From positions 64,001 through 128,000 of the IMG/VR virus record IMGVR_UViG_3300042691_050360: a DNA stretch of 64,000 nt; one strand, written 5' to 3'. Below are positions 6,364 through 64,000 of the stretch, one piece after another. This stretch comes from a virus. The notes beneath the pieces were generated by a model, which saw only the letters and a list, made by a program, of their open reading frames with translations, did no database searches and was not told where the DNA came from. Every line of letters begins with the position of its first letter. Within the stretch, counting starts at the first letter, position 1. The position numbers were made by a program, and so were the translations under genes.

Positions 6364-7668
6364 ATGCAACAAATTACTTTAACACAATCTCAAATCGAAA
6401 CAATTACATCAAACAACTACACAAAATCTCAAATCAAAGAATATCTAGGTATTTCTTTGCCAACGGTTGATGTCGTTTGTAGTAAATATGGAATAAATCC
6501 AAGTAGAGACCAAAGAAAATACAAGCCAAATGATAATTATTTCAAAACATGGTCAATCGAGATGGCTTATTTTCTCGGCCTTATTGCGGCGGATGGTCAT
6601 GTAAGTCACAAGAAAAATTTATTGATGATTAATCTCAAACAAACAGACCACCAGATAATAGAAAATCTTAAAAATGCCCTGGAGTATGACGGCCCTATTT
6701 ACACCATTAATAAGAAGGACGGACAGCCACAATCTTGCTTGACAGTAAGCTCAAAAGAAATTGCTAAAGATTTAAATGATTTAGGATTATCAGGAAACAA
6801 AACTTATGATTTTGATTGGGTAGTGGGAATGCCCGAGGAATATGTATCTCACTTTATTCGCGGCATTTTTGATGGAGATGGATGCATTCATTTAAACACG
6901 GAAAAGCATAATTATTCTGTTAATATTGTCGGTACATACAAACTCACTGAAAATATTAAAGTTTTTTATGATAAATTATGTAATACAAAATCTGGACATC
7001 TTCAGCCCAATAAAAATGTGCAAGTTTTGTATTACAACGGCAGATATAATGCTTTGGCTTTTCTGAATTGGATCTACACAGACTCCACACAATCTACGAG
7101 GCTCAGCAGAAAGTACGAGTTATATCTTCAGCTCAAAGACACAATCTGTGCGGAAGAACAAGTTCCAAATAACTCTCACATTAATCAGGAAATTGCAAAT
7201 GAGATTAGAAGTGATAAGCACAGAGAATCTACTTCAAAAGAAATTGCTAATAAATTGGAAATTAGCGAGCATATTGTTAATGACGTGAAATTGAATAGGA
7301 CATGGATTGATGAATCTTACGCTCCCACTCCCCCTTCAAACACAATCTTGATCACGCATGACAATCAGATTAAGACGATACAGGAATGGTCCGACGAGCT
7401 TGGGATTCCATATTCAACTATTGACAGAAGATATAGGATGGGTTTGCCTTCCGACCAAATCTTAGATAATTCTGGGAAGCGATTAAGCCTAGGCAAGACA
7501 CAATCTGAAAAGGAGAAGCAGGCATATGAATTAGCTTTTAATCTCCGCACAGATTATAAAAACGGTTTAAAGGGCAAAGCTTTGTACGAGGAAAAATACG
7601 GAATTAAAAAATCGCGGTATATTGACATTATTGGAAATCGCACTTGCAAAGAGGGTGAAATTTGGTAA
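6364..7668 (+). CDS. Free-standing LAGLIDADG homing endonuclease with extra HTH-like domains
   Basis: AYFLGLIAADG and HFIRGIFDGDG motifs; C-terminal KTIQEWSDELGIPYSTIDRR HTH. Confidence 0.85.
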   Translation: MQQITLTQSQIETITSNNYTKSQIKEYLGISLPTVDVVCSKYGINPSRDQRKYKPNDNYFKTWSIEMAYFLGLIAADGHVSHKKNLLMINLKQTDHQIIENLKNALEYDGPIYTINKKDGQPQSCLTVSSKEIAKDLNDLGLSGNKTYDFDWVVGMPEEYVSHFIRGIFDGDGCIHLNTEKHNYSVNIVGTYKLTENIKVFYDKLCNTKSGHLQPNKNVQVLYYNGRYNALAFLNWIYTDSTQSTRLSRKYELYLQLKDTICAEEQVPNNSHINQEIANEIRSDKHRESTSKEIANKLEISEHIVNDVKLNRTWIDESYAPTPPSNTILITHDNQIKTIQEWSDELGIPYSTIDRRYRMGLPSDQILDNSGKRLSLGKTQSEKEKQAYELAFNLRTDYKNGLKGKALYEEKYGIKKSRYIDIIGNRTCKEGEIW

Positions 7669-7698
7669 CAGAACTAAAAAAGGCTGTAAAATGAAATT

Positions 7699-7947
7699 AT
7701 GAATGAATATGAAAAGTTTTTTCAGAGAGAGCACGAGCGAAAATCTAACATCGACACAATCGCAAATGCATTGAAATCCAATTTTGAAACTAAAAATGCT
7801 GAGACCATTTCGCCAGATGGAAGTAAGCAAATGGTAACTAAGTCGTTTAATTCATCTGGTAAAGAAGTGTATACATCCAGCAAAGATGGAAAAAATGTAA
7901 TGACTTTTTCCACTAAAAAGCAATTGCTAGATTATTTAGGGGGATAA
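7699..7947 (+). CDS. Hypothetical protein
   Basis: 82 aa ORF with TGTAAAAT 14 nt upstream of ATG. Confidence 0.6.
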   Translation: MNEYEKFFQREHERKSNIDTIANALKSNFETKNAETISPDGSKQMVTKSFNSSGKEVYTSSKDGKNVMTFSTKKQLLDYLGG

Positions 7948-7977: not shown

Positions 7978-8955
7978 TTACTGCCCCAATCCCCAAAGAG
8001 GATATTGAACGAAGAGATTTGGATTAGCCCCTAGACCAACCGTTCCGCCTGTAAATCCGCGAAGAGCACCATTGGTTAGATTCATTCCAAATGCCGGGGT
8101 GGCACTTACACCATACTCCACTGCAGTTGGTGTGAAGGCGAGAAACTTACCCAATTGGTAATATTTTGCCGAGCCGTCTGCGTGTCCAACAATAACTCCG
8201 CCGAATGCAGCTCTTACTTCATCCGCTGGTACAGTTTGAAGTGCAGAGTAATTGGCTGTTTGCTTGCCGAGCTCCCATGCCCAGAACTCTCTTACAGCAG
8301 GAGGGAAAACGGTGACTGAATTTGATGAAGCATCTGTGCCGTATGCAATTGGCACAACACCGATCTGGAGGTTGCCAGATTCCATGAGAATACCTGCCGC
8401 AGAAGTATTTGGTAGAGCTGTCATACTTCCACCAAGCCAGCTATTCCGGAACATGGTTGATGATCCTGGTGCTCGATTCCAGGTGTTAAGCTGACCAGTG
8501 AGAGAGGTGTTGAGGAGATAGCTTCCGGTTACCTGTCCGCATTGTGCCCAGCTTCCAGCAGGACAGCTAGGGGTAGATGCATTGGTATTTCCGCGAGATG
8601 TGTTGAAGTAGAGTTGGACATTCTTAACATAAGGCTGTGTCCACTTCTGCCAAGAGAAGTGATTAACTCTGTGTGCAAATCCTGCTGATACTCCGCAGTT
8701 TACTGTACCAACTACGTTGTTGAGGGCACCGTTAAGACTAGAGTTTGCGATGCAATCATCATTGCGTGGATACATATCGTCATTATCGGCACCATACATG
8801 ATGACGCCAAGAGAGATCTGTTTTTGATTACTGATGCCGGTGGCTTTCTTTGCTGCTGCCTTGGCTTGAGCGAAGACGGGGAAGAGGATTGCCGCGAGGA
8901 TTGCGATAATCGCAATCACGACAAGAAGTTCGATTAATGTAAAAGCTTTTTTCAT
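7978..8955 (-). CDS. Prepilin-type N-terminal cleavage/methylation protein with H-X9-DG-type C-terminal motif (DUF1559-like)
   Basis: MKKAFTLIELLVVIAIIAILAAILFPVFAQAKAAAKK...SNQKQI.LG..MY..DNDD.YP; GHADGSAK near the C-terminus. Confidence 0.9.
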   Translation of the reverse strand: MKKAFTLIELLVVIAIIAILAAILFPVFAQAKAAAKKATGISNQKQISLGVIMYGADNDDMYPRNDDCIANSSLNGALNNVVGTVNCGVSAGFAHRVNHFSWQKWTQPYVKNVQLYFNTSRGNTNASTPSCPAGSWAQCGQVTGSYLLNTSLTGQLNTWNRAPGSSTMFRNSWLGGSMTALPNTSAAGILMESGNLQIGVVPIAYGTDASSNSVTVFPPAVREFWAWELGKQTANYSALQTVPADEVRAAFGGVIVGHADGSAKYYQLGKFLAFTPTAVEYGVSATPAFGMNLTNGALRGFTGGTVGLGANPNLFVQYPLWGLGQ

Positions 8956-10616: not shown

Positions 10617-11573
10617 ATGAATAAACTAGCACACAATCTGGCTTCTTTAGGGAAAGAGCTTTATTTAAATGGCTTTGAAAAAGAAGCAAAAACTATGCTT
10701 TTTACATCTTTGAGAATTGCACATATGGATCATCCTCTTCTTGAAGTAATTGAAGAAATGGGTTTTGAGCATGCAGATGATGAAAATGTGGGAGGGGGAC
10801 TGGAGATTTTCATTAATGTTCACCCTGATGGCAAAACGGAATATGAGCTGATGAAAGATGGGGATTCTCATGAGTTTGATTCTTTCGAGGAATTAGTGTC
10901 TCATCTTGCTGAAGATGATGAATCAGATTGTGGCTGTGGGTGTGGTGGAGCTTGTAAGGAGGCATCCTCTAGCATCTTTAGAAAAGCGGATTCATTAATG
11001 GATTCGCTAAAGAAAGATAAACTATCTGACCAATACATGGATTATGTTCGTGATTTTGGATACATACCTTATGAAGATTGGCTTGCGGAAAAAGATTATG
11101 CCAATATGGATCTGAGTGAAAAAAATCAAGAAGAGTGTGAGCATGAATCTACTTATGAAGATTGGAGCACTGCGGGCAGGAGTTTTGGGCCGATGATCGT
11201 TTGCTCAGACTGTGGAAAGGTGCTCAGAGCAAAAGACATAGATGACTATGAACGAGAAGAGAGTGAAAGAGAATTTTATCGAACAAGTGCAACAAAGAAA
11301 AAGAACAAACCTCTAAATAAGCCATTTCGAACTCCAGGTGGGCCAAAGAAGTTTTCAGTTTATGTCAAGAATGAAAGCGGTAATGTTGTAAAGGTTAACT
11401 TCGGTGACCCCAATATGTCTATCCGAAGGGATGAACCAGGTCGAAGAAAGAATTTTAGAGCTAGACATAATTGTGATAATCCGGGGCCGAAGACTAAAGC
11501 TCGCTACTGGTCATGTAAAATGTGGCAAAAAGGAAAATCTGTTTCTGAGATGACAAGGAGAAAGAAAAAGTAA
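10617..11573 (+). CDS. Acidic protein with a basic C-terminal domain common in phages
   Basis: C-terminal KPFRTPGGPKKFSVYVKN..GNVVKVNFGDP..RKNFRARHNC..ARYWSCKMW. Confidence 0.65.
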   Translation: MNKLAHNLASLGKELYLNGFEKEAKTMLFTSLRIAHMDHPLLEVIEEMGFEHADDENVGGGLEIFINVHPDGKTEYELMKDGDSHEFDSFEELVSHLAEDDESDCGCGCGGACKEASSSIFRKADSLMDSLKKDKLSDQYMDYVRDFGYIPYEDWLAEKDYANMDLSEKNQEECEHESTYEDWSTAGRSFGPMIVCSDCGKVLRAKDIDDYEREESEREFYRTSATKKKNKPLNKPFRTPGGPKKFSVYVKNESGNVVKVNFGDPNMSIRRDEPGRRKNFRARHNCDNPGPKTKARYWSCKMWQKGKSVSEMTRRKKK

Positions 11574-13150: not shown

Positions 13151-14006
13151 AGGAATTATACTTGCTGGCGGAACTGGTTCTAGATTATATCCAGCCACAC
13201 AATCTGTCAGCAAGCAACTTCTCCCCGTATACGACAAGCCGATGGTTTATTATCCTTTGTCTATTTTGATGAGGGCGGGAATTCGTGATGTTTTAATAAT
13301 CACCACACCGCATGAGCAGAGCTTGTTTCGCAATCTTCTAAAGGATGGTTCTCAATGGGGAATGAGCATTTCATATGAAGTTCAGGCTTCTCCAAATGGT
13401 TTAGCTCAGGCCTTTCTGATTGGAGAGAGATTTATCAATTCCGAGCCTGTGGCTTTGATTCTAGGCGACAATATCTTCTACGGTGGCAATCTGATGAGCG
13501 AGTGTGAGAAGGCTGTAGAAAGAGATTGTGCTACTGTGTTTGCATATCGTGTGAATGAGCCCGAGCATTATGGAGTGGTTGAGCTCGATAAAAAGAATAT
13601 TCCTTTGAGTATCGTAGAGAAGCCGAGCGATCCTAAATCAAATTATGCTGTTACGGGCTTGTACTTCTACGATTCAGATGTTGTTGAAATTGCTAAGAGC
13701 GTGAAACCATCTGAAAGAGGGGAGCTAGAGATTACATCTGTCAATAATGAATATTTAAATCGAGGGAGGTTGGCTGTAGCAAAATTGTCACGGGGATGCA
13801 CTTGGTTTGATGCGGGTACTTTCGACAATTTGCTTGAAGTAAGTAATTATATTGCATCAATTCAAAACAGGCAAGGATTAATTATTGCAAGCCCAGATGA
13901 AATTGCTTTTAGAAACAATTGGATTACACAATCTGAGCTAGATGATTTGATAAATTCTTATGGTAAAAGCTTATATTCTAAGCAATTAAGATTGAGTTTA
14001 GATTGA
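13140..14006 (+). CDS. rfbA: Glucose-1-phosphate thymidylyltransferase
   Basis: KGIILAGGTGSRLYP..SKQLLPVYDKPMVYYPLS, LGDNIFYG, RGELEIT, WFDAGT. Confidence 0.97.
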   Translation: MIGKGIILAGGTGSRLYPATQSVSKQLLPVYDKPMVYYPLSILMRAGIRDVLIITTPHEQSLFRNLLKDGSQWGMSISYEVQASPNGLAQAFLIGERFINSEPVALILGDNIFYGGNLMSECEKAVERDCATVFAYRVNEPEHYGVVELDKKNIPLSIVEKPSDPKSNYAVTGLYFYDSDVVEIAKSVKPSERGELEITSVNNEYLNRGRLAVAKLSRGCTWFDAGTFDNLLEVSNYIASIQNRQGLIIASPDEIAFRNNWITQSELDDLINSYGKSLYSKQLRLSLD

Positions 14007-14676: not shown

Positions 14677-15090
14677 CATGCTCACAGAGATCCCAACAAC
14701 TTGGTGGTAGTTTTTTCGCCCGATCTTTACCAGTGTAAAAACACAATCTGGATAAACAATGTCAAAGCCATTATCATTGAAGAAATATTTTTGTGGATTC
14801 CCAAAGTTTTTAATTACTGATTTAAAATCAGACATAAGTCCCACATTTCTGTACTTCACAGATTTGTTTAAACCATAGGCTTGCAGTGTTACAACTTTGC
14901 TATTTTTATCACTGATTGCTGTGAGTAGATATGATTCTCTGGAATAAGTAAAGGACTGAATTCTTTTGTCATCAGATTGATCTAATGTGATTGGGTTTCC
15001 AAATCTATTAGTGACATCGAGAATGGAGATATTCGGGCCGAATCCAAGGAAGCCGGGGAATGCAGATAGTGTTAGGAGAATTGATAGCAT
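14644..15090 (-). CDS. Putative exported protein
   Basis: Hydrophobic N-terminus; two (R/N)FGNP half-repeats. Confidence 0.55.
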   Translation of the reverse strand: MLSILLTLSAFPGFLGFGPNISILDVTNRFGNPITLDQSDDKRIQSFTYSRESYLLTAISDKNSKVVTLQAYGLNKSVKYRNVGLMSDFKSVIKNFGNPQKYFFNDNGFDIVYPDCVFTLVKIGRKNYHQVVGISVSMNKEPAQSKKK

Positions 15091-15812: not shown

Positions 15813-16293
15813 TTGTGCGAATAAACCGATTGAAAGTAAATTAATTTTAATTGATATATCTGGCTCTAATGCGGTTAATATCACAAAAACCTTAAGTAAA
15901 GTAAATGATATTTACATGGAGAGTGGGCCAGGTGATATCTTTGAAATTTATTTCTTTTCGAGTGTGAAATACCTAGCGTACAATGGTGCTAAGTTCAATA
16001 AAGACCGCGATTTTTTACCATTCATTCAGAAGGGCTATGAAAAGACAAAAGAGATTAAAGTAAAAGAAGGCACTTCTTTTGATATTTGTAAATCAATTCT
16101 GGAAAAAACAAATGGCTATACATCAGCTTACATTCTGACAGATGGGTTTTTCGAAGATTCAAAAATCACAAAAATCAACACACCACAAAATCTGAAAATA
16201 AATATTGTTGGACTCAATATACAAAACAATGAGATTGTGTTAAATGCTTTTAAAGATCCTGGACAAGTGACGATAGATTTTCAAGGTGATTAA
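15754..16293 (+). CDS. Putative lipoprotein with vWA-like domain
   Basis: Signal with lipobox-like ISSC; LILIDISGS (DxSxS MIDAS) and YILTDG. Confidence 0.6.
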   Translation: MKQIFLKTLMSLSLASLISSCANKPIESKLILIDISGSNAVNITKTLSKVNDIYMESGPGDIFEIYFFSSVKYLAYNGAKFNKDRDFLPFIQKGYEKTKEIKVKEGTSFDICKSILEKTNGYTSAYILTDGFFEDSKITKINTPQNLKINIVGLNIQNNEIVLNAFKDPGQVTIDFQGD

Positions 16294-24506: not shown

Positions 24507-27500
24507 TCATGATGATCTTATTACAAATGAATCTCCTGGAGGGTATCCGAAATTAACCGAGGTGGCTGAATCTAAAGTTTGACTTACATTCAGGAACGTG
24601 ATATTATCGATTGGTGCTCCTGAATTCAAACTGTAAGGAGCAGGAGACACAATCTGAGTGCCAGTGCCAATCCCTATGAGAGTATTGCCGAATCCAACAT
24701 TCCAATTAATGTCTATTACTGCGGTTGATAGAGTGAACATAAATACCTTGAGGAACACGGGGCTATTTCTTTGAGATGTTGTAAGCGTCCCAGTAGCCAC
24801 TGTGTAGTTAGAAGAAAGTACACTAAACGTGTCTATCAGGGGCTGGCTATTGTTATTGATATACACTTGTATGCCAGATGAAGTTCCGAATCCGACAGAG
24901 AACGGAACATTAAGAGAGAGGTTACCAGAGGGCTGGAATGTGCCTTCGAAAATTGCACTCTTAGGATTTGTTCCTGTTCCAATAAATGTATTGGCTAAGC
25001 CTATTCTGTAGTAAATAGAGTTAGAATATGTTTGCTGGGCTATATTGAAAATATTGAAATTCTTGAAGTTAGATAAGGTTCTGTTCATCCATGTGATTTT
25101 CCATTTGGGGTCAGCAAACAGCGAAATCGGGCCTTCTTCTACAGCTACCCCGTTTGAGTTATATCCAATATTAACGAAAATATCGTGCGTATATCCCACA
25201 TATTCGTATTCAGGAATAGATGTGCCGATGAATGAGTTGTTGTTTAAAAAGGCTCGCGGATAAATTGAAACTGGTTTATTTATCAATTCTGATTTATATG
25301 ACCAATATCCATCAATTTGACGAATGGGGGCAGATTCTCTCAATCTATTTGGCTTTGCTAGTCCAAATTGTGATGGGTCTGTGTAGTTAAAAGCCCCGTA
25401 TATTTCATTGCTCACTTGGTTAAATATCTTATTAAACAAGAAATTAAAATTAACGATGGTATTCCCAAACCCAATCTGGCTTGAAGTGGCCATCCCAATC
25501 TGAACGCCATCATACTGACTGAGAGATCTGCATAAATAAACTTGATCGGTATCTAGCTTTCTTGAAAAAGTAAGATATGCTGAATTTATAAATGTTGAAA
25601 CTTGCAAACTCGTGGAGAACGTGAATGCGGCTCCGACAAAAGTAGAAGATAGAGAAGTGGCCCTTATAGGGTTGCTGATAATAATATCCGTGGTCGAATT
25701 ATAAGTGGTGCTGATATTTAAGAATACGTCATTAATAGACGTGGTGAAATTCGGATTTCTTCTAAGATTGATGATAACCGTGTTGGTGTCAGCCGAAACC
25801 ACATTTGACGCAAAGATACTTGAAATACCTATTGTGGACTTTCCTAAATCTAAATCATAGCCCGTGGTTGAAAGTCCACCAGCAACAGTTATGACGTTGT
25901 TATCATTATAAATCAAAGATGATGAGATACTGAAGTTAGATGTTGTTACGCCCGTGAATGCACCCTTAAGCCCCAAGAAGCACCCTGTTAGATTCTGCTT
26001 GATTGAAACCCAATAATCTGCATTGTCCACGCCTCCTAGGGCTTGAGCCGTGTCTGTAAATCTGAAACTCAATGGTATGTTCAAGTCTGAATATGAAACT
26101 CTATTTATTTGAGTTGTAAAAATCTTATCAGAGCTTGCCACCTCTGTTTTATCAGTTCCATTTTCAGCATAAACATGTGCAGTGATATAGCCACTTGGAT
26201 TTGCATTAGCTAACTCAATCAATTTACAATTCACTGTTAAGTAGCTTATGTCTTGATTTCCATAAGATGACGGTACTGTGATTTTGTTAAACACCTCATC
26301 TTCATACATTATGTAGTTTTGAGTACCTGATGAAAAATTCAAAACAACAAGTGCTGTTGATGGGTTTTGAAAATTATTGTAATTCTCTAATGCACCAGGA
26401 TTTAAATTATCGCTGGCGATGAAGAATGAATCAACTGTTGGATAGTTATTTATTAAAATGTCAACGTCTGCGGTAGACGAGTATCCTAGCCCGACAAAAG
26501 CTTTGTTATTAAATTTAAATCCAGCATTGTAACCCTCAGATGGAGGGGAGGTTTGTGTGAAGCTTACCAGATTGTAACTGGAGTCTGTGACGGCGGTGAA
26601 ATTGCTGACATTATTCATAATGAGCGAAATATTTGCATTTGTTTCGCCCATTCCTACGTCAGTAAAGGGGACATCGGTCAAGAATGTGTTGAAGTTAAAA
26701 TAGAAATTACTCCCGGAATTTAATATTTGAATTGTAGCTGGATTAATAATCCCGCTTGAAAGTATTTCATACCTAACCTGAGCTGGCTGTTCATCTGTTC
26801 TCATATTAGTTGGTGGGAGAATCCAAGATGTGTATGTGCCTGGAGATTGAAGTGAGCCGAGAGAATTTACATAAATAGAATTTACATAACAATTACTGCC
26901 CACTTGAACATTTTGTATTGAATATGGCGGAGTCAATGCCGCACTCGTGACAATACCCGAGTTGATCCTTGAGGATAACTGCGTAAATCCACCTTCATTA
27001 TCCACTTTCGAAGTTGACACATAGAATGGGTTAGACAACTCGTCGTTCCAGTATTTTTCAGAATTTATAATATAATTTGCCGCACAGAGAGACATTCCCT
27101 GGAAATAAACGTACTCACTTGGATGTGTATCTACGTTAACCACATAAAATGAGTTTCCGGCATCTAGATATTCCTGAATGGCATCATTGATGTCGTCGGG
27201 ATCTGTTATACCCTGGCTACGCAATAATGCAACATACTCTTCGTAAGTGTATCTTTTAGTGTCAACTGGGGAGAATGCACGATTAACTATCGGGCGAACG
27301 ACACCATCTTTCAGGTCTGGTATAATACCAGCATATCCATACAATCTGAACTCATCTATGCTAGATGCACTGTAATCATTATAGTCAGTAGTTTTTTCAT
27401 CAACTAAATAGTAATACCCCGTAACATCTTGATTGAGGTCCACCCTTGTTTGATAATCGCTTTTTGACAATACATATTTTGAAGCCATTAAATATAATAT

Positions 27501-38821: not shown

Positions 38822-39154
38822 GTGTGGTATAGGTATTCACAACAGCAAATTCTACCTCCAGTCCATGAAGGTTGCCATTGCTATATAGAAACCCTTCCCA
38901 GCGGAAACACAATCTGGCAATTTTCTGGAAATACTTGTGACACCTGCAAGGCACTAGCTAGAGAATATAACAGCAAGCAAAACTCAATAATTAATGAGCC
39001 AGCCCAAATAGATCCAGTTATTCCTGAGCCACCAGCTGTCATGGAAGATCCTGTGGAGCAACCTGAAGAAGAACCAGTAGCAGAAGATCCCACCACCCAG
39101 CCTATGCTATTTAGAAATCTCAGATATACACCTAAAAAGTTTTACAATCTATAG
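38822..39154 (+). CDS. Small Cys-containing protein (PPVHEGCHC)
   Basis: PP.H..C.C motif recalls MuF/minor head proteins; WYRYSQ N-terminus. Confidence 0.55.
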   Translation: MWYRYSQQQILPPVHEGCHCYIETLPSGNTIWQFSGNTCDTCKALAREYNSKQNSIINEPAQIDPVIPEPPAVMEDPVEQPEEEPVAEDPTTQPMLFRNLRYTPKKFYNL

Positions 39155-39426: not shown

Positions 39427-39454
39427 ATTTTTATATACGAATCCAGATTGTGTT

Positions 39455-42836: not shown

Positions 42837-44900
42837 TTACGAGGCTCCTCCCTTCCACAGCATTCTGAACATCCTGCTACGTCCGCCCGGCATAGCATAC
42901 TCTGGAACTGTGATCGATCCCATAATCGGTCTGACCGCAATCGGAAGCTTCTTGAGAAGCTCGTTAAATTCTTCCTTATACATATCTGCCGTGGTCTTGA
43001 GATTAGCTACAGCATCATACGAACCACTATCTGGATCCATAACTAATAATCTTCGCTCTCTCTGGTTCAGTCCAACAATAAGCTGTCTTAAGAGGTAGTA
43101 TGTCGCTCCAGATACCAGTGCTTGATCATACCAGAATGGCACACCGGCCACGGAGCTCATTTTATTTGTGCCAGGTTGAGAATTGATTGCTTGAAGGGCT
43201 AGATACAGTGCATTATTGATTTGCGTGTTCGTGAACATCTTGACATAATATGTCACTAAGATTGTGTCATATTCTTGTAGGCTCACAGGTTCGCCTAGTG
43301 AGTTGAAGAACATTAGTACACCTTGGTTATTGAATCTGTAGAATAGGCCACTAGGGTAGTTATCTAGTAATGAGCTTGGTGCACTAAAAGGGTCGCTAAG
43401 CGATTGGTCTAGGCTATTATAGAACCCTGTGTATGGATTGAGGACAAACATTGGTGATCTTTGCCCGTTGTTTGTCGAGCATGTTATTCTAACTTGCGGT
43501 GCTGGGTCTGTAACAATATCGCCGTAGGCAAGTTGAGCACTTGTTCTGTTATATCCAAATAATGGTTCTTCGTCATAAATCGGAACTCTAAGTAGTGCAT
43601 TGAGTTCATATAGAACTGACGACTTAAGCAAAAGCTCATCTCCGATTGTTGGCGGAATGGGGATAACGCTTGAGTAGTCAAGATTGGTTTGGACTATATA
43701 ATAGACATCTGCTGGATTACCTTGACCATCTATGTATTCATTTAGCGGAGCTTGCACTGATGCAAGGAATGTCAATGCCGTAGGTATGTATGTTATTCGA
43801 TTATTTCGGTCAATGACCATGATATTGAATTCATTGTCTTCCGCCACACCAATCGGTGTATCAAATTGTTGATATCCCACTCCTTGAGAGCCTACGCGGT
43901 TTGTCACTTGTCCTGAGATGGAGCTAGATTGATCCGTAGACACAATCTGGTAACCCACGCCATTAAATCCGTATGTGTCTGTATTCACTGTTAGATTGGC
44001 ACTAGCGATCACGCTTACATTACTATTGTATGTATCCGTGGCTACAATGATACCGAAGTGATTATAGATAATATTAGACCAAACAGAATCTTGCGTAGGT
44101 GCCATCACATAATTGTTTGACCATTGCGATGAGTTATTTCCGAGCGAAATATCACCATCATAAGCCCATTCGTAGACATTGTTCAGATTATCATATGCGG
44201 CAATTTTGGAGCTATCGTAGCAAGCAATTCCAATTAGTGTGGCTCCGCCTTCCACTCCATTGGTTGTGTTGATAATTTGCCCTCTGTTGCTTGTATTGAG
44301 AATGAAATTGCCGGTATATCCGCATCCATAAACTCCACCACCATATGTCAGGTAGACATTGTTATCATCCACTTCGATATATGAATTTGTGTAAATCCCA
44401 ACGCTCAGTCCAGTGATATCGTTGTAATTTATTGTCTTGACATAATTTAGTGTAGACACTCCGTAGTTATATATTCTTGCTTGATTGGCTTGATCGTATC
44501 CGAGAAGTAGATACTCTGTAGACCCTATTCCATATACTTTCAGGGTGTTGGGGAGAAATGCGGGCAAAGTTCCACCGGTGCTATTTGTGCTAAATATGGT
44601 GTTGAAATTCTCTTGTTGCTTTCTATAAACTACAAACTGGCTTTGAGTCATTAGGTAGTTGTATGTAGATCCTGCACCGATAGCAACTGGTCTTGTTAGT
44701 CTTTGTGTGGTTCCGCTCGTGGAGAGTGATGATACAACCAGGGGAAATCTGTAACCCGAGTTATCTATGCCTTTGAATATTAAAGATTGTGTAGTTGCAT
44801 AGTTTATATTTGGATCCCACGATACATACACGCCGGGGTTCCCGTGCGAATTATTGTATAGCCCAATTAGACCCTGTTGATATGGAACTGCACTTGGCAT
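42837..44900 (-). CDS. Putative virion protein with NHL-like repeat and neck/adaptor-like C-terminus
   Basis: GSQGVG..QFDTPIGVA.D...IMVIDRNNRI; helical C-terminal domain. Confidence 0.5.
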   Translation of the reverse strand: MPSAVPYQQGLIGLYNNSHGNPGVYVSWDPNINYATTQSLIFKGIDNSGYRFPLVVSSLSTSGTTQRLTRPVAIGAGSTYNYLMTQSQFVVYRKQQENFNTIFSTNSTGGTLPAFLPNTLKVYGIGSTEYLLLGYDQANQARIYNYGVSTLNYVKTINYNDITGLSVGIYTNSYIEVDDNNVYLTYGGGVYGCGYTGNFILNTSNRGQIINTTNGVEGGATLIGIACYDSSKIAAYDNLNNVYEWAYDGDISLGNNSSQWSNNYVMAPTQDSVWSNIIYNHFGIIVATDTYNSNVSVIASANLTVNTDTYGFNGVGYQIVSTDQSSSISGQVTNRVGSQGVGYQQFDTPIGVAEDNEFNIMVIDRNNRITYIPTALTFLASVQAPLNEYIDGQGNPADVYYIVQTNLDYSSVIPIPPTIGDELLLKSSVLYELNALLRVPIYDEEPLFGYNRTSAQLAYGDIVTDPAPQVRITCSTNNGQRSPMFVLNPYTGFYNSLDQSLSDPFSAPSSLLDNYPSGLFYRFNNQGVLMFFNSLGEPVSLQEYDTILVTYYVKMFTNTQINNALYLALQAINSQPGTNKMSSVAGVPFWYDQALVSGATYYLLRQLIVGLNQRERRLLVMDPDSGSYDAVANLKTTADMYKEEFNELLKKLPIAVRPIMGSITVPEYAMPGGRSRMFRMLWKGGAS

Positions 44901-47748: not shown

Positions 47749-48728
47749 TGTTTAATTATAAGAAGTTTGTTTTCAAGAAGTTCTCCCAGGCCCAACCCGC
47801 TCAGACACAATCTGGAAAAATTTTAAATGAATTAGACCCAAATAAGTCCACTGGCAAGATCTTAGATGAATTAGATACAAATAAGTCCGTTGATAAAAAA
47901 GTTGAAGAGCAAGTTAGTGCTAGAGCACAAGAAAAAGCAAGGTCGGTTAATAATGCCAAGCGTCAGCTGGGTGTTTTTGAAGATACTTTTGAAAAGCTTG
48001 GTGAAGCCCTCCAAGAAGTCTCTAAGGACTCTCCTTTTGCATCGGTAGAGCCTGGCAACCTAGTTAAGGCATGCGATTCAGTCGCCAAGACTCTTAATAA
48101 AGAAAATGTCATTACTCCTGATGAAATTCAGGATATATATCAACAATATATAGAAGCTTTCCAAAATATGCTATCAGCTTCGCAATCGCTTTTTACTGAA
48201 TATGATGAAGTTAAAAACGACGATGAAGTATTAAAGCTCCTTAATCTTGGCGGCGAGATCAGAAGCGATTCAGGGGCCCCGGCATCTCCTCAGACAAAAG
48301 TGAATGAACCAGATCGGTTAGAAATGAAATCGTTTCTTGATGCCGAGATTCAAAAAATACAAAACAAGATTAAGTTGAATGAGCTTAAGATCACAAAGCA
48401 ACAACGCCAATTTATGCAGTTTGATATTCTGTATCAAGATATGTTTAACTATTATTCTTTACTTTCTAGAATTTGCGAGACAAAAACCCGATATGATGCA
48501 CAGGTTGAGCAGTTTAAATTTGGGAGTCCTGAAGATTATCAGGCTTTGCTGAGCTATTATGAATATGGTATGTCTTTGCTTCAAATTATGGCACCGAAGG
48601 CAGCTAGTATCTTTCCCACGAATGCAAAAAATATACAATCTTACTATTCGATGTTAATAGAACAGGCTCGGGCTGAAATTAGTAAGCTTTCCATTGATCC
48701 GCTTAAGGCACTGTACGGAAGGAAGTAA
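47748..48728 (+). CDS. Coiled-coil hypothetical protein
   Basis: 326 aa; FKKFSQ motif; 13-aa tandem repeat GKIL.ELD.NKS. Confidence 0.6.
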   Translation: MFNYKKFVFKKFSQAQPAQTQSGKILNELDPNKSTGKILDELDTNKSVDKKVEEQVSARAQEKARSVNNAKRQLGVFEDTFEKLGEALQEVSKDSPFASVEPGNLVKACDSVAKTLNKENVITPDEIQDIYQQYIEAFQNMLSASQSLFTEYDEVKNDDEVLKLLNLGGEIRSDSGAPASPQTKVNEPDRLEMKSFLDAEIQKIQNKIKLNELKITKQQRQFMQFDILYQDMFNYYSLLSRICETKTRYDAQVEQFKFGSPEDYQALLSYYEYGMSLLQIMAPKAASIFPTNAKNIQSYYSMLIEQARAEISKLSIDPLKALYGRK

Positions 48729-48729: not shown

Positions 48730-49368
48730 GTGGATTTCGAAGCTTTTGTTGAATTTTCAGATTTAGGGCTAGATGATTACATTATAGATCTTGATTGGGA
48801 TATTGAAGCCAAGCGTTTCTTGCCATCTCATCATACCGCCGGGGACTTAAGAGCTATAAATGTCGGCCAAAAACAATCAAAGAAGCAAAAAGTTTTTAAG
48901 ACTCTTGGGGCACTCAAGCGGGAAAACTCCGAGCCAGTAAATATTCACGACTCTGGCTATAACCTTGATGCCCCTGCTGTTGAGGGTAATCAAACACAAT
49001 CTGATTCAGAAAGAAATGTTATTCTGAACACCGCTGAAAAGATAACAGAAATCCTTGGCGACAAGATTGTAAATGAAGTGATTAACAACAGCTCTTTCAG
49101 TGAAAATGTAAATGTAAAAATAGAAGAGAGTGTAACAAACATATCTGATGTTCTTAATCAAAAAATAGAACAATCAAATTCATTTACCACTGAACAAATT
49201 ACTGAATTAGAATCAAATATGAATATGATCAATAATACTCATATTCATCCGCGTGAATTAAAAATAATAGAGGAGAGGGTCACCGAGCAAAATGAAAAAA
49301 TCAAACAAGAAATTGATCGAAAGATTGAAAAGCAAAAAGATTTTTTCACGAAGTTCTTAAACTCATAA
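48730..49368 (+). CDS. Hypothetical protein
   Basis: In-frame GTG just after the upstream stop preferred over TTG 48694. Confidence 0.55.
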   Translation: MDFEAFVEFSDLGLDDYIIDLDWDIEAKRFLPSHHTAGDLRAINVGQKQSKKQKVFKTLGALKRENSEPVNIHDSGYNLDAPAVEGNQTQSDSERNVILNTAEKITEILGDKIVNEVINNSSFSENVNVKIEESVTNISDVLNQKIEQSNSFTTEQITELESNMNMINNTHIHPRELKIIEERVTEQNEKIKQEIDRKIEKQKDFFTKFLNS

Positions 49369-52300: not shown

Positions 52301-53686
52301 ACTCAAATCAACAAGAGCAGAACTGGTAGTATTGTGAACGGAGTGGAACCATATAAAATATTCTTCAGAACTGGCCAATCTAATGATGTGAAAGTTATAG
52401 ATACAAAGCGGCACCAAAATGGCTTGATTGTAACAATGGCTAATACTAAAACTAATACATCTGATAATGCTATACAACAGATTGTGTCTGAGAGTTTCTT
52501 TAGATTAACCACCTACACTGATAAAGTCACCACGCCTTTAAGCAACTTAAATCTCGTTGAATTAGATTTAAAAAACCCAATCTTGTCAAAAAGTGATAAC
52601 AACAACATTCAACTCGCCCTTTCCGGCCAGAATCTAAACAATGCAAATATAACAACTTTGCTCTTTAACAATGAAGCACCTGGATATTACTCCACTCAGC
52701 CAAGCGACGGCGGTACATTTATGCCGATTAACGACCCCGGTTCTGTTGTAAGTAAGTCGGCTAATTGTGCTATAACCACTTTTGATTTCAAGGATGATAA
52801 ATCCAATAATATAGGCGTAACTGCAGGTGGTAATTTAATATACTCCCTGAATCAATCTTCCTCTACATCTCAAGCTACTAATTTTACTTTAGTTGAGGGG
52901 GATCCAGCAAACAATAGCACCAACGAAGAGCTTGGCAACTTTGATAACCTATATATTTCCTCAGGTGTTGATAACCAATATGTTTTTTGCGGCCCCGCTC
53001 AAGTCACTTTTCCTGGAATATTGCTTACGAGCCAGAATTGTGTTGTGTTTTATGTGTTTGCTAAAACCAACTCTTTATCCTCTCAGGCGAAATCAAACAG
53101 AGATTTTTTCAACATTAAACCCGGAACTGCCATTTATGGAAGATTTTTAAGTGGTGCCAGGATTTCCACTGTATTTTTAGTTTTTGATTTTGAGGGCTAT
53201 TGCGAGCAAAACGGTGGAGTAAATTTTGGCACAAACGAATTTCCAATTATTAATCAGATCACTGTTTGCAAGAATGATATTTATTCTTATGGTGAAAGCT
53301 TTAATTTAGTTTTTGATTGTGCTGGAAAAATATTTGTTGCAAGATCTGTGTTTACCCAAAACAACGCATTTACGTCCGGCCTTGGGATTGTTTATGGCAA
53401 TCTTGAAACATCATCTGATGCCGCTGGTTCAAAATTTTTAAATTGTTTAAATAATATGGTTTCCAATTCTTCGCTTTATAAATTCAGATATAAAGACCGA
53501 AGTGGTATTCCTAAAGCTTTTTATAATAAAGACTTAGATTTTTCACAAAAAATAGGATTTGTTGATTTTGACGGCGTTTACATGGGTGTACAATTTTACA
53601 TAGGCTCAGATATTTATGAGATTGTGATTGATAAATCTTATGTACTCGAAGGCGAGTACAGGAAAATCGGAGAAATTAATGAATAG
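49370..53686 (+). CDS. Very large virion structural protein
   Basis: 1438 aa, beta-rich, in the tail operon. Confidence 0.55.
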   Translation: MPDPYENPDVTPCLGTYTWVPTTPPNFGGFNFTRGFSSLIIDRGSFRNYWYKNLLEKNILVRTFSDNTSSGSPYNPIKNSTRSLALGFPVKIGNGDNVAISEVKSESLIEFDFLTDSQKRLSCIQINYDLSVFANDENYNFDLNPPVPAVLVYGKTSSGAEELITTDVFKGLNLTRTRSTLNESNLVSANNSGSPDSGPYFVNFKIKIKEEILDRSKFPQYKSVIFKINPAIVSLPSSLVFVIKNIMFFTADRVNFRFAAESDQLPCKALGYSMAIDGTFFPALALGASLASAAGGVLSGVSVGTMGLFIWPSILPDNCNIDVKLFNPDFISNSPGFAHSLNLHLYIFTMPVFGPLGDFLLPGVLQPHFGVILGPKSFTQQWIFYGNSNNNNLQLAVMNSALFKKNSGLVTLLQGEQAVGEVKQIRPLVSGFSSIVKNQPYYEQLGVSTTGGFKNDYVDEFGIQSQSETYNGSVPRLTPFTALEPVANFPRTSKQQFAYSTFLFETEPDLFNLFTESAPCLLFKCSSSSGFSDSIFIEPGFLYASLNCFSTDASGMFDTKLVYRFFLVSKDATPTPTDPLTKTIKIQESGTNDSSIIIEPVDRSWDFSNTLVTGNIVGDLNTVETAEIINQSLRTFSPFDGKPYDLYCGVYAMSSLNDSFSGYDLTKYSTLDLPTVTFSINNDFIIQLPIYYRKSYANGGTLQAQRDFGLKGRYTSDKLSYTIITEKYNGSPFSGGTYSGSIDSFDGVSGLLTFVESSTAPSDKTKFSIQAGENITETDYVLLVESTSNARINSGEWVLSFSADVSAGGSNIEAKFEIDLVDRRSSNLILKVLSSEFQPIFASVGDSPASKTCTANITVPFFLPQSEGLLVVRILFRNKTASLATVSVDKITLEENTLEQFSFIPQQIRNYLIGFYEDLPIQPDSFVSGCQSFILKLDMGSGTIIYDPQKGLSITGVIYSPTWAVDLPENMEIQYNATQINKSRTGSIVNGVEPYKIFFRTGQSNDVKVIDTKRHQNGLIVTMANTKTNTSDNAIQQIVSESFFRLTTYTDKVTTPLSNLNLVELDLKNPILSKSDNNNIQLALSGQNLNNANITTLLFNNEAPGYYSTQPSDGGTFMPINDPGSVVSKSANCAITTFDFKDDKSNNIGVTAGGNLIYSLNQSSSTSQATNFTLVEGDPANNSTNEELGNFDNLYISSGVDNQYVFCGPAQVTFPGILLTSQNCVVFYVFAKTNSLSSQAKSNRDFFNIKPGTAIYGRFLSGARISTVFLVFDFEGYCEQNGGVNFGTNEFPIINQITVCKNDIYSYGESFNLVFDCAGKIFVARSVFTQNNAFTSGLGIVYGNLETSSDAAGSKFLNCLNNMVSNSSLYKFRYKDRSGIPKAFYNKDLDFSQKIGFVDFDGVYMGVQFYIGSDIYEIVIDKSYVLEGEYRKIGEINE

Positions 53687-60400: not shown

Positions 60401-62524
60401 CTTAGGGTATCATATCCCAAAGTTCTGAACTACAGACAAAAATATGGATTTAAAAATAGCATCTTTGCATTCAATGCAAATCGTTACTCACCAACTGGAG
60501 TATTTGTTTTCAGGTTTGATTCCGGACTAAGCGGGGGAACTACATTTGATTATGGAAGTTTTATCTTTGCAAATCCTGTTTCCGCTGGTGGTGCATCTTC
60601 GATTCAATTTTATTACAGAACCGCTAATACACTCCAGGAGCTGAACACTTCTGGACAAAAAAATCAGATATTTCCAGTTTCGGGCGGAAGTGCTTCCATA
60701 AATGCCTCTGGTAGATTCATAGATTTACTCTTCTATTTTAACGCATCTAATATTGATTCATTAGCAGCACCTGTATTGAGTAGCATTTCGCTTTACTATA
60801 CGGTTTTTGGATCGGCAACAGGCATTATTTATGACACAAATGTTAACAATGCACCAGCTGGATCTTACCCTAGATTTAAATGGTCTCAGGGATCTCTTTC
60901 AAATATAGATATACTTCCCGTTCCAGGTGGCAATACACAATCTTATCAAATTGAGATATCTAATACTGAAAATCTCAATAAATACACATTCTTGTCTGCA
61001 AATAATTTGCAATTTGCTTCAGGTGATAATTCAAGTGGATTCGTTGATATCAATAATAATTTCTATCTTTCACCATACCAGGCTTTTGCCGGCCTTGAAA
61101 GTGGTCTTCTTAGCCCCCAGCATTACGTTGCAAACAGCTCCAACGGATATTTCATAGCAGACACGGGCAATGATCGAGTGATAGAGGTGGATTCTGATGG
61201 TTCTATAGCAAGGGCGATCCAAGGCAATATTACTCTTCCAAGATGTGATCGGGCTTTTGCGGTTCTGGGGGCTTTCTATAACCAGAACACCAAGCAGCTC
61301 TATGTTCCATTTAGCCAGTACCTCTTTTTGCCCAATAGCTATCTTCAACAGCTGGCTATTTATATAAACGGCGTATCATATAATCTTTCAAATTCCGCGT
61401 TCTTTGTGCAGACTGACACCGGGCTTTTTGCTATCAATTCGAATAATCAATCTTCTACTTTTTACGCCACAGCAACCACCGCTATGGATGCGATAATCGG
61501 TGAGTATCCTGATGATATTAAATTCCAGATACAAAATCCCCAACAAAACCCTCCATTCCAGGTTCCAACCACGGGCAGAAGTGATGGAAATGAGCCAGAA
61601 AATGAATCAATAATTTATGACAACATTACATTCTCTGAGTTTGTTTCAAATAGAAATCAGGGAATTGGAACTGTATTGAATTTTGAAAATAACATTACAG
61701 AGGTTGTAATTGATCCAACCACATTTGGCACGGCTGATGCAACAACAACCGTTCTGTGGAGCTACTGGCAGGGTAATAATCAATTCCCTAACTATTCCAC
61801 ATTCTACTCAATTCCTGTAAATGTATTCCCAATTTATTTTGACAATATTTTCAAGCCCTTACATCTGGATTACACAGAAAGCGAGACACTTGTCGTCTCA
61901 ACTGTTGGCAACACTGCAGTCAGGGCGTATAATAACTTGTTCGAACTTGATTATAAAATTAGCATTGGTAATTTCAATTTTAATGAGAAGCTTGGCGGAT
62001 CAACTGTTATTCTCGACAGGGGTGCTTTGGAGCCAGGTAATATTCTTCTAGTTGCAAATCCAGGAATAGGGACTACTACTATTATTGGAAATGTTTTTGT
62101 TTACAATAGAAACACCGCGTCTTTAATAAATAGATATCAGTATGAAAATCTTGATGCAGTTAAGGCCTATCCAAATAATGATAACTACCTTGTTCTATTA
62201 AATGACAGAATTGGTAGAATTAGATCTAAGCTTATAGAAATTAGCCAAGACGGAACAAATACATATTCTCTGTCTAACATTTTCACAAGACCTGTTTCTT
62301 TGGATATTCAAGAAAATGGCCTTTTTTATGTAACTGATATTACTGGGCAATATGGAAATATTTATTTCCGGACGTTTGTCGGTGATGGTTCAGGAAATTC
62401 AACAGGTCAATCAGGTGGCCCTTCTGGCGGTGGATCGGGCGGAAATACGGGTTCGCCTCCTGGAGGCAATGCAGGTGGATCTCTCATCGGTGGTGGTGGC
62501 GACGGAAGGGCATTATCGCCTTAA
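57485..62524 (+). CDS. Giant tail fibre/receptor-binding-like protein with NHL beta-propeller repeats
   Basis: Repeated P.G...(YI/FV)AD..N(H/N)R(I/V) blades; Gly-rich C-terminus. Confidence 0.7.
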   Translation: MNETPIYQLGYFVPNMTMGNNLDMDKNRFTTIENQLYNVYNIFGNGILSVYDSSGQQVSSWVLSSVPNERSVQISSGKGHIAYKYTETTSAENIDLILPGGTTSGSFWYYLYATPNLLTPTEKSVTFLASLTQISDPVNYIGLGAAFLYINPSDGSFTVTVYNTSDYGRQEISLFASLTSLVKNHVHIGGPNNPSPIDLGKHVTGFLSSENISNIDLNKVTSGTLDPNRLPLINHNSLTDIGTLTHDQIDSLLAALQYPGANYNLSDYGIVNRLQIILALKKQSGFFNIDGEQLNSIFYLPYPQLENFVDRANTTAVVNNEIHRVYGVTGLARQSNIIKINTTQDFNTALFYAEDSVINPPVSNIQVTGVTTTSLAGTINMPYGLTGSASTIYVSSSQDSYVSSFSTSGTFINRRIDFDPNLNLNSPLGLWYDKVSGYLYIADTFNHRIIVTDSTLTNLIAKIGANDASGMPGPGSGNGFNFPKGVYGMGNTFYVSDSGNNQIQKYIWQSGNANWQRTYQYSDGTIFGLNQSLSDPRGLFATSVGTQNFLFVADYNNHRVLCGIETNNSYSVYQVLGQNSAGFGIFNTNLITYDESLNVVGTGVAFTFNNTIVGTISTIGVANSGVNYSDFDTFIVYYNGNNNGLINVLTDGAGHITTAFVSYGFSTTNNLGFDHPQGIAFTQMGTNLNLLITDTDNNRVVSYNASSVGVGTTNNQFNFGYTFGTAGSLNDTPSLIYFNRPTGIYAQQGFGTVFVADSLNNRVHGLTTTFTTFSTSSISSLSTSIFGVGDTSLTSGGITLTQPIGYVGIATPSTGFVTPPNWFVGEQISQGTQVQADIIARYSYVTFSTKTFDIQDTIAVAIGTINESANQNLGQIGCYLVFDDNFSDGTKITFSLTNNSAKPSIRISSIFTLRQQGLTNNQLFNFVALSNFTTQPNPSVIGFGFKWSTETGWANSDILQLGWYLPEFDSNLLRVSYPKVLNYRQKYGFKNSIFAFNANRYSPTGVFVFRFDSGLSGGTTFDYGSFIFANPVSAGGASSIQFYYRTANTLQELNTSGQKNQIFPVSGGSASINASGRFIDLLFYFNASNIDSLAAPVLSSISLYYTVFGSATGIIYDTNVNNAPAGSYPRFKWSQGSLSNIDILPVPGGNTQSYQIEISNTENLNKYTFLSANNLQFASGDNSSGFVDINNNFYLSPYQAFAGLESGLLSPQHYVANSSNGYFIADTGNDRVIEVDSDGSIARAIQGNITLPRCDRAFAVLGAFYNQNTKQLYVPFSQYLFLPNSYLQQLAIYINGVSYNLSNSAFFVQTDTGLFAINSNNQSSTFYATATTAMDAIIGEYPDDIKFQIQNPQQNPPFQVPTTGRSDGNEPENESIIYDNITFSEFVSNRNQGIGTVLNFENNITEVVIDPTTFGTADATTTVLWSYWQGNNQFPNYSTFYSIPVNVFPIYFDNIFKPLHLDYTESETLVVSTVGNTAVRAYNNLFELDYKISIGNFNFNEKLGGSTVILDRGALEPGNILLVANPGIGTTTIIGNVFVYNRNTASLINRYQYENLDAVKAYPNNDNYLVLLNDRIGRIRSKLIEISQDGTNTYSLSNIFTRPVSLDIQENGLFYVTDITGQYGNIYFRTFVGDGSGNSTGQSGGPSGGGSGGNTGSPPGGNAGGSLIGGGGDGRALSP

Positions 62525-62534
62525 GGAGAGTAAA

Positions 62535-64000
62535 TTGGCAGTTAACTTCAAATATGCTAAAAACGCTTTTCAAGCTTACAGTTTTACACCCAGTGAACAA
62601 TCTGTTTTTAATGAATTCCCTCGTTATTCAATAACTTTCTACGACGATCAGGATTTTAAGTTTAAGAGACAATCTGTAAATGGTAAATCAGTTTTATCAA
62701 AAATCATCTCAGATGATTTTTATCCTTTCAATCTATCTTATGAAGATAGAACAAATTACATATCTGGAAAAAGTAATGTATTAAAAGTATTTTTTGCTAA
62801 GATACTTGTTTACAAAACAATTACACAAGATACTGTTGGCCAAACATCTAATGTTTTTTACCTGACTAGAACACAAACACTAGGCAACTCGACAACCCTG
62901 TATTATTCCGTGAGATGCATTGAGAAAAATTCTCAGTACACCGTGTATTCTTCTCGGATTTCTTTAAATAATTCAGATTTTGTGAATCAGTTTGACGGAG
63001 AAGCCTTTTTCACACTCGTTGGTGACTTTTCGGTAAACCTTGAGTATCCAATTAGTTTAACCTTACTGGACGCATCCACAACAAGCATTTTCATGACAAC
63101 TACAACGCCCATCCTTAACACAATAGATGCTAGTGTTAATAGTTTGAATTTTTACGAGAATGTCGTGGTGAATTTTGATTATTATCAATATTCAGATTCT
63201 TTTGATTATAATTTTGAGCCCCTTAACCTTACCCTAACTACTGAAGTTTTTTCGTCCAGCCCAAACTTGTACACCACTAACACAAGCGGAGGCACATCTA
63301 TTAGATTTAACTTCTTTGAAGGATATCCTGTATCTAACTTAACAAACTTTGCCCTTACCTTGACAAATGCTTCTGTGGGATATAATCCAAATACCGACAC
63401 ACTATTTACATTAACTTTTAAATTCAGCAATGGAGATTTTATTTCAGTAAACGCATGCGAAATATTTAATAACTTCCAGAATAATTATTACAATATAGTT
63501 TTTAACTTCAGTGATGTTATTTGGCCCGATAATTTTATAAATTACTTTATACTTGAGATTAAGACGCTCGCTATATCTGTAACCGAGCCATACACGATTA
63601 CTTATTTGAATTTTGTAAAAGAACAGAGCAGTGTTAGTAGCTTTTCTTTTAAAAGCTTCTCAACACAATCTGAAGCTTCAATATACACATACAGCCCTGT
63701 AAAAACAAAAATAGATATAGACAGCCTTGAGAATCAATCTTTAGTCCTTGGTAGTGATATTTTTTCTATAGTGGACACAGTATTTAAGATTAAAGATGAT
63801 TCGAATTTTCAAATAACCACCCAATCTGGATCTGTTATTCTTCCAGAGTCTGCGTTGCTGAAGTCAGAGAATATATATATTCCTGTATTCAATCTGCAAA
63901 AGGGCACTAAAATAAGAACATTAGATTCTTTTGAGAGCATTACATCCATTAAAGTTCTTTCACCAAGCTTCATTGAAATGATAGACACTTATGCAGAAGA
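62535..64000 (+). CDS. Structural-type protein, 3'-truncated at window edge
   Basis: SD AAGGAG then TTG GCA GTT AAC; frame is open at both ends checked and is absent from the track, consistent with no stop in the window. Confidence 0.65.
   Translation, partial: MAVNFKYAKNAFQAYSFTPSEQSVFNEFPRYSITFYDDQDFKFKRQSVNGKSVLSKIISDDFYPFNLSYEDRTNYISGKSNVLKVFFAKILVYKTITQDTVGQTSNVFYLTRTQTLGNSTTLYYSVRCIEKNSQYTVYSSRISLNNSDFVNQFDGEAFFTLVGDFSVNLEYPISLTLLDASTTSIFMTTTTPILNTIDASVNSLNFYENVVVNFDYYQYSDSFDYNFEPLNLTLTTEVFSSSPNLYTTNTSGGTSIRFNFFEGYPVSNLTNFALTLTNASVGYNPNTDTLFTLTFKFSNGDFISVNACEIFNNFQNNYYNIVFNFSDVIWPDNFINYFILEIKTLAISVTEPYTITYLNFVKEQSSVSSFSFKSFSTQSEASIYTYSPVKTKIDIDSLENQSLVLGSDIFSIVDTVFKIKDDSNFQITTQSGSVILPESALLKSENIYIPVFNLQKGTKIRTLDSFESITSIKVLSPSFIEMIDTYAE

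Follow-up and report, generated by a model that had tools for sequence, protein, structure and literature searches.

A strongly selected, lineage-specific DNA word dispersed through the genomes of a jumbo phage family

The subject of this analysis is a short DNA word, the 9-mer ACACAATCT, scattered over a stretch of viral DNA of 64,000 nucleotides (hereafter the window, whose positions are counted from 1). The window corresponds to bases 64001-128000 of the 166,522-base IMG/VR record IMGVR_UViG_3300042691_050360, here called G000, and carries 31 exact copies of the word, 17 on the plus strand and 14 on the minus strand. The word is real, lineage-specific and under strong selection in a family of jumbo phages. 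Because it saturates the positions open to it, is conserved at individual sites, occupies promoters and arrays, is near chance level in candidate hosts and is replaced by another word in some relatives, we consider it probable that it is an asymmetric double-stranded DNA site, predicted to be bound by a phage-encoded, lineage-specific protein and kept by selection at the DNA level. Such selection would favour additional sites wherever coding permits.

Selection on the word and its fate among relatives

An earlier sequence-only reading of the window had listed the 31 copies, and all its coordinates and strands proved exact, as did its counts of 19 copies extending to a 10-mer ending in G and of ten more sites matching an 8-mer. 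Its rough expectation of about one copy from base composition agrees with 100 dinucleotide shuffles of the window (mean 0.68, maximum 3) and with order-2 to order-4 Markov models (1.1-2.2 copies expected). The full 166,522 bases of G000 hold 65 copies (36 plus, 29 minus), 56 of which lie within called genes, in all six reading frames. A graded matrix of the word shows a strict 3' core (positions 6-9) and a more permissive 5' part, positions 1-5 allowing substitutions; at position 10, G is favoured and found in about half of the copies. The spacing is clumped beyond random (coefficient of variation 1.24-1.51), with per-strand gaps of up to 30 kb, whether a compatible site carries the word does not depend on how far away its neighbour is (p 0.31 and 0.93), and no strand polarity exists along the phage genome beyond gene direction.

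The same reading had held that protein sequence does not explain copies lying in different frames, and had proposed Markov and codon shuffles as checks; the enrichment persists throughout. Indeed, the 56 coding copies of G000 compare with 5.3 (maximum 10) after a synonymous-codon shuffle and with 2.1 after codon permutation. Among the positions of G000 where the encoded peptide is compatible with the word, 56 of 87 (64%) carry it exactly, against 5.8 (7%) expected; in G003, a 347-kb IMG/VR phage that is 99% complete, the figures are 177 of 225 against 21.8, and control words realise a much lower fraction of their compatible positions. Furthermore, compatible positions are about twice as dense in word-bearing phages (0.55-0.73 per kb) as in word-less relatives (0.25-0.31), and therefore amino acids have been changed to accommodate the word.

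Selection is also visible site by site. At orthologous positions, 8 of 14 copies are retained between G000 and G001 (1.0-1.2 expected for matched 9-mers) and 10 of 29 between G000 and G003 (1.1-1.7 expected), the other sites turning over, so that individual sites are kept across about 35% nucleotide divergence. The word is densest in genes that have no orthologue (0.76 versus 0.20-0.31 copies per kb), such as a LAGLIDADG gene with five copies. The lack of any copy in the head operon at 1-6300, correctly noted before, belongs to a 20.5-kb gap that offers only four peptide-compatible positions; since the same region of G003 realises six of eight, this bareness mostly reflects lack of opportunity. 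Likewise, codon opportunity accounts for most of the deficit described for structural genes. An adapter or assembly artefact, named earlier as a possible source of the motif, is excluded because independently assembled relatives carry ACACAATCT, often at orthologous positions.

Among these relatives, G001 holds 39 copies in 62 kb, G002 12 in 30 kb and G003 336 in 347 kb. In G004 and in jumbo phages further removed, the word is about as frequent as expected by chance. Most of the longer loci in a 27-row clade of close relatives (support 100/100) are rich in ACACAATCT. Within this clade, in which the branch order is not firm (support 90/96), loci L331, L335 and L336 carry ACACAAAAC in place of ACACAATCT. 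In the 38 kb through which this lineage was sampled (record Ga0133913_10000593), ACACAAAAC occurs 15 times (0.7 expected) and ACACAATCT once; the ACACAAAAC sites occupy new positions and the old ACACAATCT sites have decayed. In G005, a weaker related word, CCCGATCA, reaches 46 copies versus 0-4 in other genomes. G004 shows six copies of CACAATTCT versus 0.6, from 35 kb only, so a third word is not established there, and a dispersed word looked for in G006 and G007 was not found. As the word changes between relatives, it is a lineage trait able to switch. The most diverged genes of the ACACAAAAC lineage encode the beta clamp, a FeoA-like protein and membrane proteins, and its locus has no pilin; the beta-clamp gene (G000 45556-46650 compared with L408 1817-2905) is an outlier, with 50% versus 68% identity. 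These outliers suggest a host shift in that lineage. Scanning promoters for the variant word gave no match.

Other observations concern these words. Locus L440 contains both (five and three copies); at 10591-20591 its replication operon is disrupted beyond the winged-helix gene, DnaE being missing and the downstream block inverted, and its AAA ATPase carries an intein. Dispersed and tandem ACACAAAAC also occurs in ten unrelated viral contigs of 58% GC (L488, L490, L497, L500, L502, L517, L525, L535, L541 and L545), in which no protein in common with the jumbo phage family was found. A second, weaker dispersed word, CGGGCGAA, has 13 copies in G000 (for example at window positions 4850, 16820, 27291 and 33560) and seven in L433; it is enriched in coding sequence (10 genes versus 1.2) and present upstream of some G003 promoters.

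Promoters and arrays provide a second context for the word. The early region of G003 has about 70 promoters of the form TTCCAG-17 bases-TATAAT, with a start codon a few bases downstream. The exact 10-mer occupies the spacer in 31 of 82 promoter-like boxes, forward in 28 of them and reversed in 3, and an inverted copy immediately precedes the -35 box in 10; the word also lies over leaderless start codons. In leaderless paralogous genes (G001 10004, 10569, 11138 and 12099, minus strand, and window 38822), the start is GTG rather than ATG, and this GTG is part of the word. Clusters are found in G003 at 68.4-68.5 kb, in a junction that is non-coding and has G runs on either side (eight cores, 14-bp period), and at 33.2-33.5 kb (12 cores, 10- and 36-bp steps); in the equivalent junction of G005, the own word of this phage, CCCGAT[AC], is iterated seven times. 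This conserved non-coding junction ends the early region (G003 68.3-68.6 kb; G005 59.9-60.3 kb; G001 3.8-4.7 kb, where it includes an open reading frame, ORF, of 212 amino acids, aa) and is a candidate genome end, pac site or origin. A flip of the skew at third codon positions (GC3) seen there was discarded, as it vanished with four-fold sites corrected for coding strand.

G003 also harbours, at 14.4-33.0 kb (L091-L092) and beside a DUF6745 gene, a tandem array of 82 small ORFs with translational coupling and a median length of 57 aa. Nearly all start with MINTDCV, followed by hypervariable QVW/DQV repeats, and the array is absent from the other genomes compared; it could be a diversified peptide library directed against the host. 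The word is present at 66 of the starts, where it may ride on a homogenised repeat.

The candidate reader and rival explanations

A 204-aa protein encoded in the replication operon is the leading candidate for the reader; a Rep/iteron-type replication protein was not among the roles suggested earlier. Its gene (G000 28998-29612, outside the window) lies between the gene of the primase zinc-binding subunit and DnaE, near DnaB and a DnaC-like loader, and contains the word in G001 and G003 and no copy in G000. The neighbours of the protein in the Atlas are of the HTH_36 type, and 16 of 23 homologues give a weak HTH_36 match. Its AlphaFold model (predicted local distance difference test, pLDDT, 82) shows two winged helices; over the whole chain, it is matched best by the iteron-bound pi initiator (2NRA; Z 4.3, root-mean-square deviation 4.1, 158 aligned), and RepE54 gives the best full-length TM-scores (0.36-0.43), at non-significant E-values. 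The orthologue of G005 has a different second helix. On the basis of this model, a tandem winged-helix reader with a Rep-like mechanism is proposed tentatively.

The 204-aa protein would act like a plasmid Rep initiator, its monomers binding the direct-repeat clusters and loading the helicase. Early transcription would be damped by its binding at promoters, the inverted pairs around -35 included. Copies scattered elsewhere would provide additional places for loading or titration and would identify the genome as self when several phages infect together. Rep proteins bind to direct repeats as monomers and to an inverted operator as dimers (PMC4857107), two modes that mirror the arrays and the promoter inverted pairs seen here; such pairs flank the -35 of some G003 early promoters, not a promoter of the 204-aa gene. 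The system would at best work like an iteron or operator system, and membership is not claimed. A bolder extension, in which a Rep-type initiator site became a genome-wide self tag, inscribed in the proteins as uptake sequences are in bacteria, and the words of the relatives correspond to incompatibility or self-recognition groups in co-infection, is rather unlikely.

Several points weigh against this Rep-like reader. The fold match is weak (Z 4.3 is common background, and Foldseek E is above 0.5) and no sequence match to the PDB was found. L433 has no word yet keeps a similar second recognition helix; covariation with the word state amounts, in the 204-aa gene, to one buried diagnostic column, no more than in neighbouring genes, and is confounded by kinship. 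An advance prediction made for the locus of P0015 neither gains nor loses from the one copy found there in 10.8 kb. The arrays lie about 35 kb from the 204-aa gene and have 9-bp units with 10- and 14-bp periods, unlike classic iterons, which are about 17-22 bp long, helically phased and located beside the rep gene. G001 has the G-run junction but single copies only, and IMG/VR scans for tandem arrays returned only G003 from the family, the rest being unrelated coding repeats. Neither a replication-origin skew at the junction nor a skew signal of a single origin was found. Finally, extra iterons usually inhibit plasmid replication, which leaves the benefit of saturation unexplained.

The word might instead be a self-mark read by another phage protein, involved in coating, anchoring, packaging or exclusion, that favours tagged DNA over host or rival DNA. 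Such a mark predicts a word that saturates both orientations, is lacking in hosts and is specific to a lineage, as seen here. In G003, copies are most crowded in the early part, concerned with host takeover, and arrays lie in the conserved G-run junction, a possible genome end or pac site. This explanation has to accommodate gaps of 20 kb that are tolerated, the failure to find a ParB or an N6/N4 methyltransferase in G000 or G003, and TerS-like and sigma-factor genes that show no special divergence in the ACACAAAAC lineage; it seems improbable on balance. It also meets the purging of restriction sites, which indicates that the DNA is not globally shielded. Several palindromes are wholly avoided, differing from phage to phage (GCGC in G000, 0 versus 376; GATC in G001, 0 versus 389; CCGG in G005, 0 versus 1039), and CGATCG is also purged in phages (0 versus 30), an avoidance that records the restriction systems of each host. 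Because these phages avoid many restriction sites completely, the word seems to give no general protection. Thus, among the roles suggested earlier, a binding or self-marking site gains from saturation, site conservation, promoter and array placement and the word switch, and the protective role loses ground.

It is unlikely that the word is an operator or stoperator through which a phage repressor, bound to promoter spacers and gene bodies, stops early transcription. In favour of such silencing, exact copies occur in sigma-70-type early spacers, upstream of -35 and over leaderless starts, and an asymmetric site with lineage variants is known from the stoperators of Cluster A mycobacteriophages, which need one orientation relative to transcription (PMC9283540). 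This orientation rule does not hold here: once opportunity is counted, sense and antisense positions are realised alike (34 of 57, 60%, and 22 of 30, 73%, in G000; 106 of 139, 76%, and 71 of 86, 83%, in G003), which argues against stoperators. Furthermore, replication and late genes are equally saturated, the early promoters of G001 mostly have degenerate spacers, and 56 of the 65 copies of G000 are inside called genes, not mainly in short intergenic gaps. No tyrosine integrase (PF00589) and no HTH_3 or Cro/CI-type helix-turn-helix protein (PF01381) was found in G003, which IMG/VR labels a provirus, or in G000, 46% complete by CheckV, serine integrases not having been searched; Pfam sweeps of 266 G003 proteins gave no repressor among the matches listed.

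Alternatively, the word could be a single-strand priming signal for the split DnaG primase of these phages, its complement being a 9-nucleotide primer. The primase is split family-wide, the zinc-binding gene (G000 28213-28734) and the TOPRIM gene (35611-36336) lying several kb apart. The preferred 3' end, CTG, is the Escherichia coli DnaG triplet, with G at position 10 in about half of the copies, both strands are used, and the zinc-binding subunit is slightly more diverged at the ACACAAAAC locus (47% versus 57-59%). However, in a test of the exact word, the spacing is clumped, with gaps up to 30 kb and no dependence on neighbours, which argues against an obligatory priming signal. A priming role would hardly account for tandem arrays of 10- and 14-bp period or for sites in promoters, and DnaG-type primases read about three bases. 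Priming is quite unlikely.

A host factor (Chi-like, uptake-like or regulatory) as the reader, the word switch following a host switch, is very unlikely. The host is probably a member of the Fimbriimonadaceae (Armatimonadota), as suggested by a single phage gene, the prepilin-type gene at 7978..8955 (minus strand), whose product shares 69-71% identity over 325 aa with freshwater Armatimonadota metagenome-assembled genomes; that the host is known by inference from one gene itself weakens the case. The most diverged genes of the ACACAAAAC lineage are host-facing and its locus has no pilin, and in Armatimonadota the 10-mer is mildly commoner than its reversed control. Nevertheless, the five closest candidate hosts have 10-13 copies per 3.3-4.1 Mb, 201 Armatimonadota genomes contain 0-27 10-mers each, and 20 host copies examined all lie within long open frames, none being common to two hosts. 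A Chi-type site, enriched and oriented with replication in the host, is not seen in the hosts examined, nor is the abundance that a DNA-uptake sequence has in the chromosome of a competent bacterium, the five closest and the 201 Armatimonadota genomes being near chance. The mimicry of a host Chi or uptake signal proposed from the sequence is thus rejected, on candidate hosts near chance and with the true host not proven. A role of the phage pilin as an uptake receptor similar to ComP was also dropped, as this protein is a host-type Armatimonadota prepilin; no pilin match was seen in the stretches examined of the word-rich loci L268 and L327.

Least probable of all is molecular drive, in which sequence-biased recombination or repair spreads the word without benefit: doubled compatible peptides and a preference for weakly constrained sequence, as in uptake sequences (PMC2817400), and the lack of local-spacing dependence fit it, but a sequence-specific reader is needed anyway, individual sites persist despite about 35% nucleotide divergence, and genes without orthologues are the richest in copies, the opposite of uptake sequences.

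The copies in the window and the phage that carries them

Five of the plus-strand copies lie in the LAGLIDADG homing-endonuclease gene (6364..7668, plus), which is patchy among relatives; in lineage L343/L438, otherwise poor in the word, three of the few matches to the 8-mer lie in this gene. The five copies are at 6382..6390 (codons TQS, near the gene start; exact in L339), 7087..7095 (exact in L339), 7139..7147 (exact in L343), 7340..7348 (exact in L339 and L327) and 7498..7506. The plus copy at 10631..10639, in codons AHNL of ORF 10617-11573, is exact in G002, G003, L322, L339 and L327 and has one mismatch at the same site in the word-less G004. The nucleotidyl-transferase (rmlA-like) gene 13140-14006 holds two plus copies, both decayed in the ACACAAAAC lineage, at 13197..13205 (exact in G002, G003, L322 and L339) and 13926..13934 (exact in G002, G003 and L339). 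The plus copy at 14741..14749, antisense to ORF 14644-15090(-), is exact in L322 and L339 and is the single relic left in the ACACAAAAC lineage; the minus copy at 16232..16240, antisense to ORF 15781-16293(+), is exact in G003 and L322. The plus copy at 24647..24655, antisense to ORF 24507-29264(-), is not kept in G003.

In the middle of the window, minus copies are located immediately ahead of the start called for ORF 30795-31412(-) (31423..31431), antisense within ORF 32705-33343(+) (32941..32949) and within the small ORF 33378-33551(+) (33419..33427), between the divergent genes 33962-34669 (minus) and amidase 34748-35593 (plus) (34722..34730), directly beyond the amidase gene (35597..35605) and in sense within ORF 38143-38580(-) (38322..38330). 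Another minus copy, at 38817..38825, lies between divergent genes and overlaps the GTG with which ORF 38822-39154(+) begins; the plus copy at 38907..38915, within this ORF, is exact in G003. The minus copy at 39445..39453 falls between a transfer RNA (tRNA) gene, tRNA-Ala 39455-39531, and ORF 39166-39426(-). ORF 41233-42738(-) contains minus copies at 41678..41686 and, near its start, 42692..42700, as well as an antisense plus copy at 41894..41902; ORF 42837-44900(-) contains minus copies at 43259..43267 and 44784..44792 (one mismatch in G003) and an antisense plus copy at 43940..43948. Further on, plus copies lie in ORF 47748-48728 (47805..47813), ORF 48730-49368 (48994..49002) and ORF 57485-62524 (60935..60943), and a minus copy at 52479..52487 is antisense to ORF 49370-53686(+). 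The last copy, at 63663..63671 (plus), is in a 626-codon open frame (window 62526-64000, plus) that runs toward a giant gene at G000 128396 and for which no start codon was called; a non-standard start or a frameshift is possible.

Judged from its sequence, G000 is a fragment of a freshwater jumbo phage of about 350 kb. It is collinear with 70-232 kb of G003 and encodes DnaE, DnaB, RecA, RecJ, SbcC, clamp, clamp loader, ribonucleotide reductase and terminase. Twelve tRNA genes were called in the window, which has two tRNA arrays at 36360-39958. The marker used for collecting relatives was a highly conserved 284-aa protein without the word (5401..6255, plus), the probable major capsid protein. 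No cultured relative was found: the 585-aa head protein had no counterpart among GenBank phages, where TerL reached only about 23%. An Atlas search with window 7699-7944 gave no match. In the literature, of which coverage was incomplete, no paper was found on this word as a signal or on jumbo phages of Armatimonadetes.

Comparison with known systems

The closest parallels to a Rep-like reader are the iteron/Rep systems (R6K pi, F RepE, pPS10 RepA, and RctB with its 12-mers on Vibrio chromosome 2), which share with the phage an asymmetric site, direct-repeat clusters and inverted promoter pairs, and, as far as the candidate goes, a tandem winged-helix protein in a DnaB/DnaC/primase/DnaE context and a specificity that varies between related replicons. 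The putative phage system differs by its unit of 9-10 bp, its 10- and 14-bp periods, arrays that are far from the gene and missing in G001, and hundreds of copies in coding sequence. The stoperators of Cluster A mycobacteriophages (L5, TipsytheTRex; PMC9283540) are also asymmetric genome-wide words, promoters included, with variants among relatives; in contrast, the phage word is unoriented and mostly intragenic, saturates all gene classes, and no integrase or CI-type repressor was found with it. Primase sites (E. coli DnaG CTG; the NrS-1 primase-polymerase, PMC8718748) resemble the word by the 3' end CTG of the 10-mer and the use of both strands. However, the phage word is clumped, with long gaps and tandem arrays, and the phage primase is of the DnaG type, not an archaeo-eukaryotic primase-polymerase.

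Uptake sequences (Haemophilus uptake signal sequence, USS; Neisseria DNA uptake sequence, DUS; PMC2817400) are alike in length (9-10 bp), in density (one per 1-2.5 kb), in their presence on both strands and in all frames, in reshaping the proteome and in having dialects. The word differs from them in that it is found in a phage rather than a host chromosome, is densest in genes without orthologues and has no known uptake step. The 17-bp repeats of Cluster O mycobacteriophages (PMC4351075) likewise form a dispersed set of over 30 copies whose function is unknown; some are coding, and they are denser toward one region. Those repeats have dyad symmetry and are largely intergenic, whereas the phage word is asymmetric, short and found mostly in coding sequence. 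Phages with dispersed words of unknown function are therefore already known (PMC4351075), and ACACAATCT is set apart from them by a saturation like that of uptake sequences (PMC2817400), a dialect switch and a testable candidate. Such words usually come without a reader; here, two natural dialects in related phages, a small candidate protein from each and promoters with and without the site are at hand. If the Rep-like protein is the reader, the replication initiator of this phage would have moulded the genome as far as the amino acids it encodes, which would suggest a sequence-based discrimination of self and kin among co-infecting jumbo phages.

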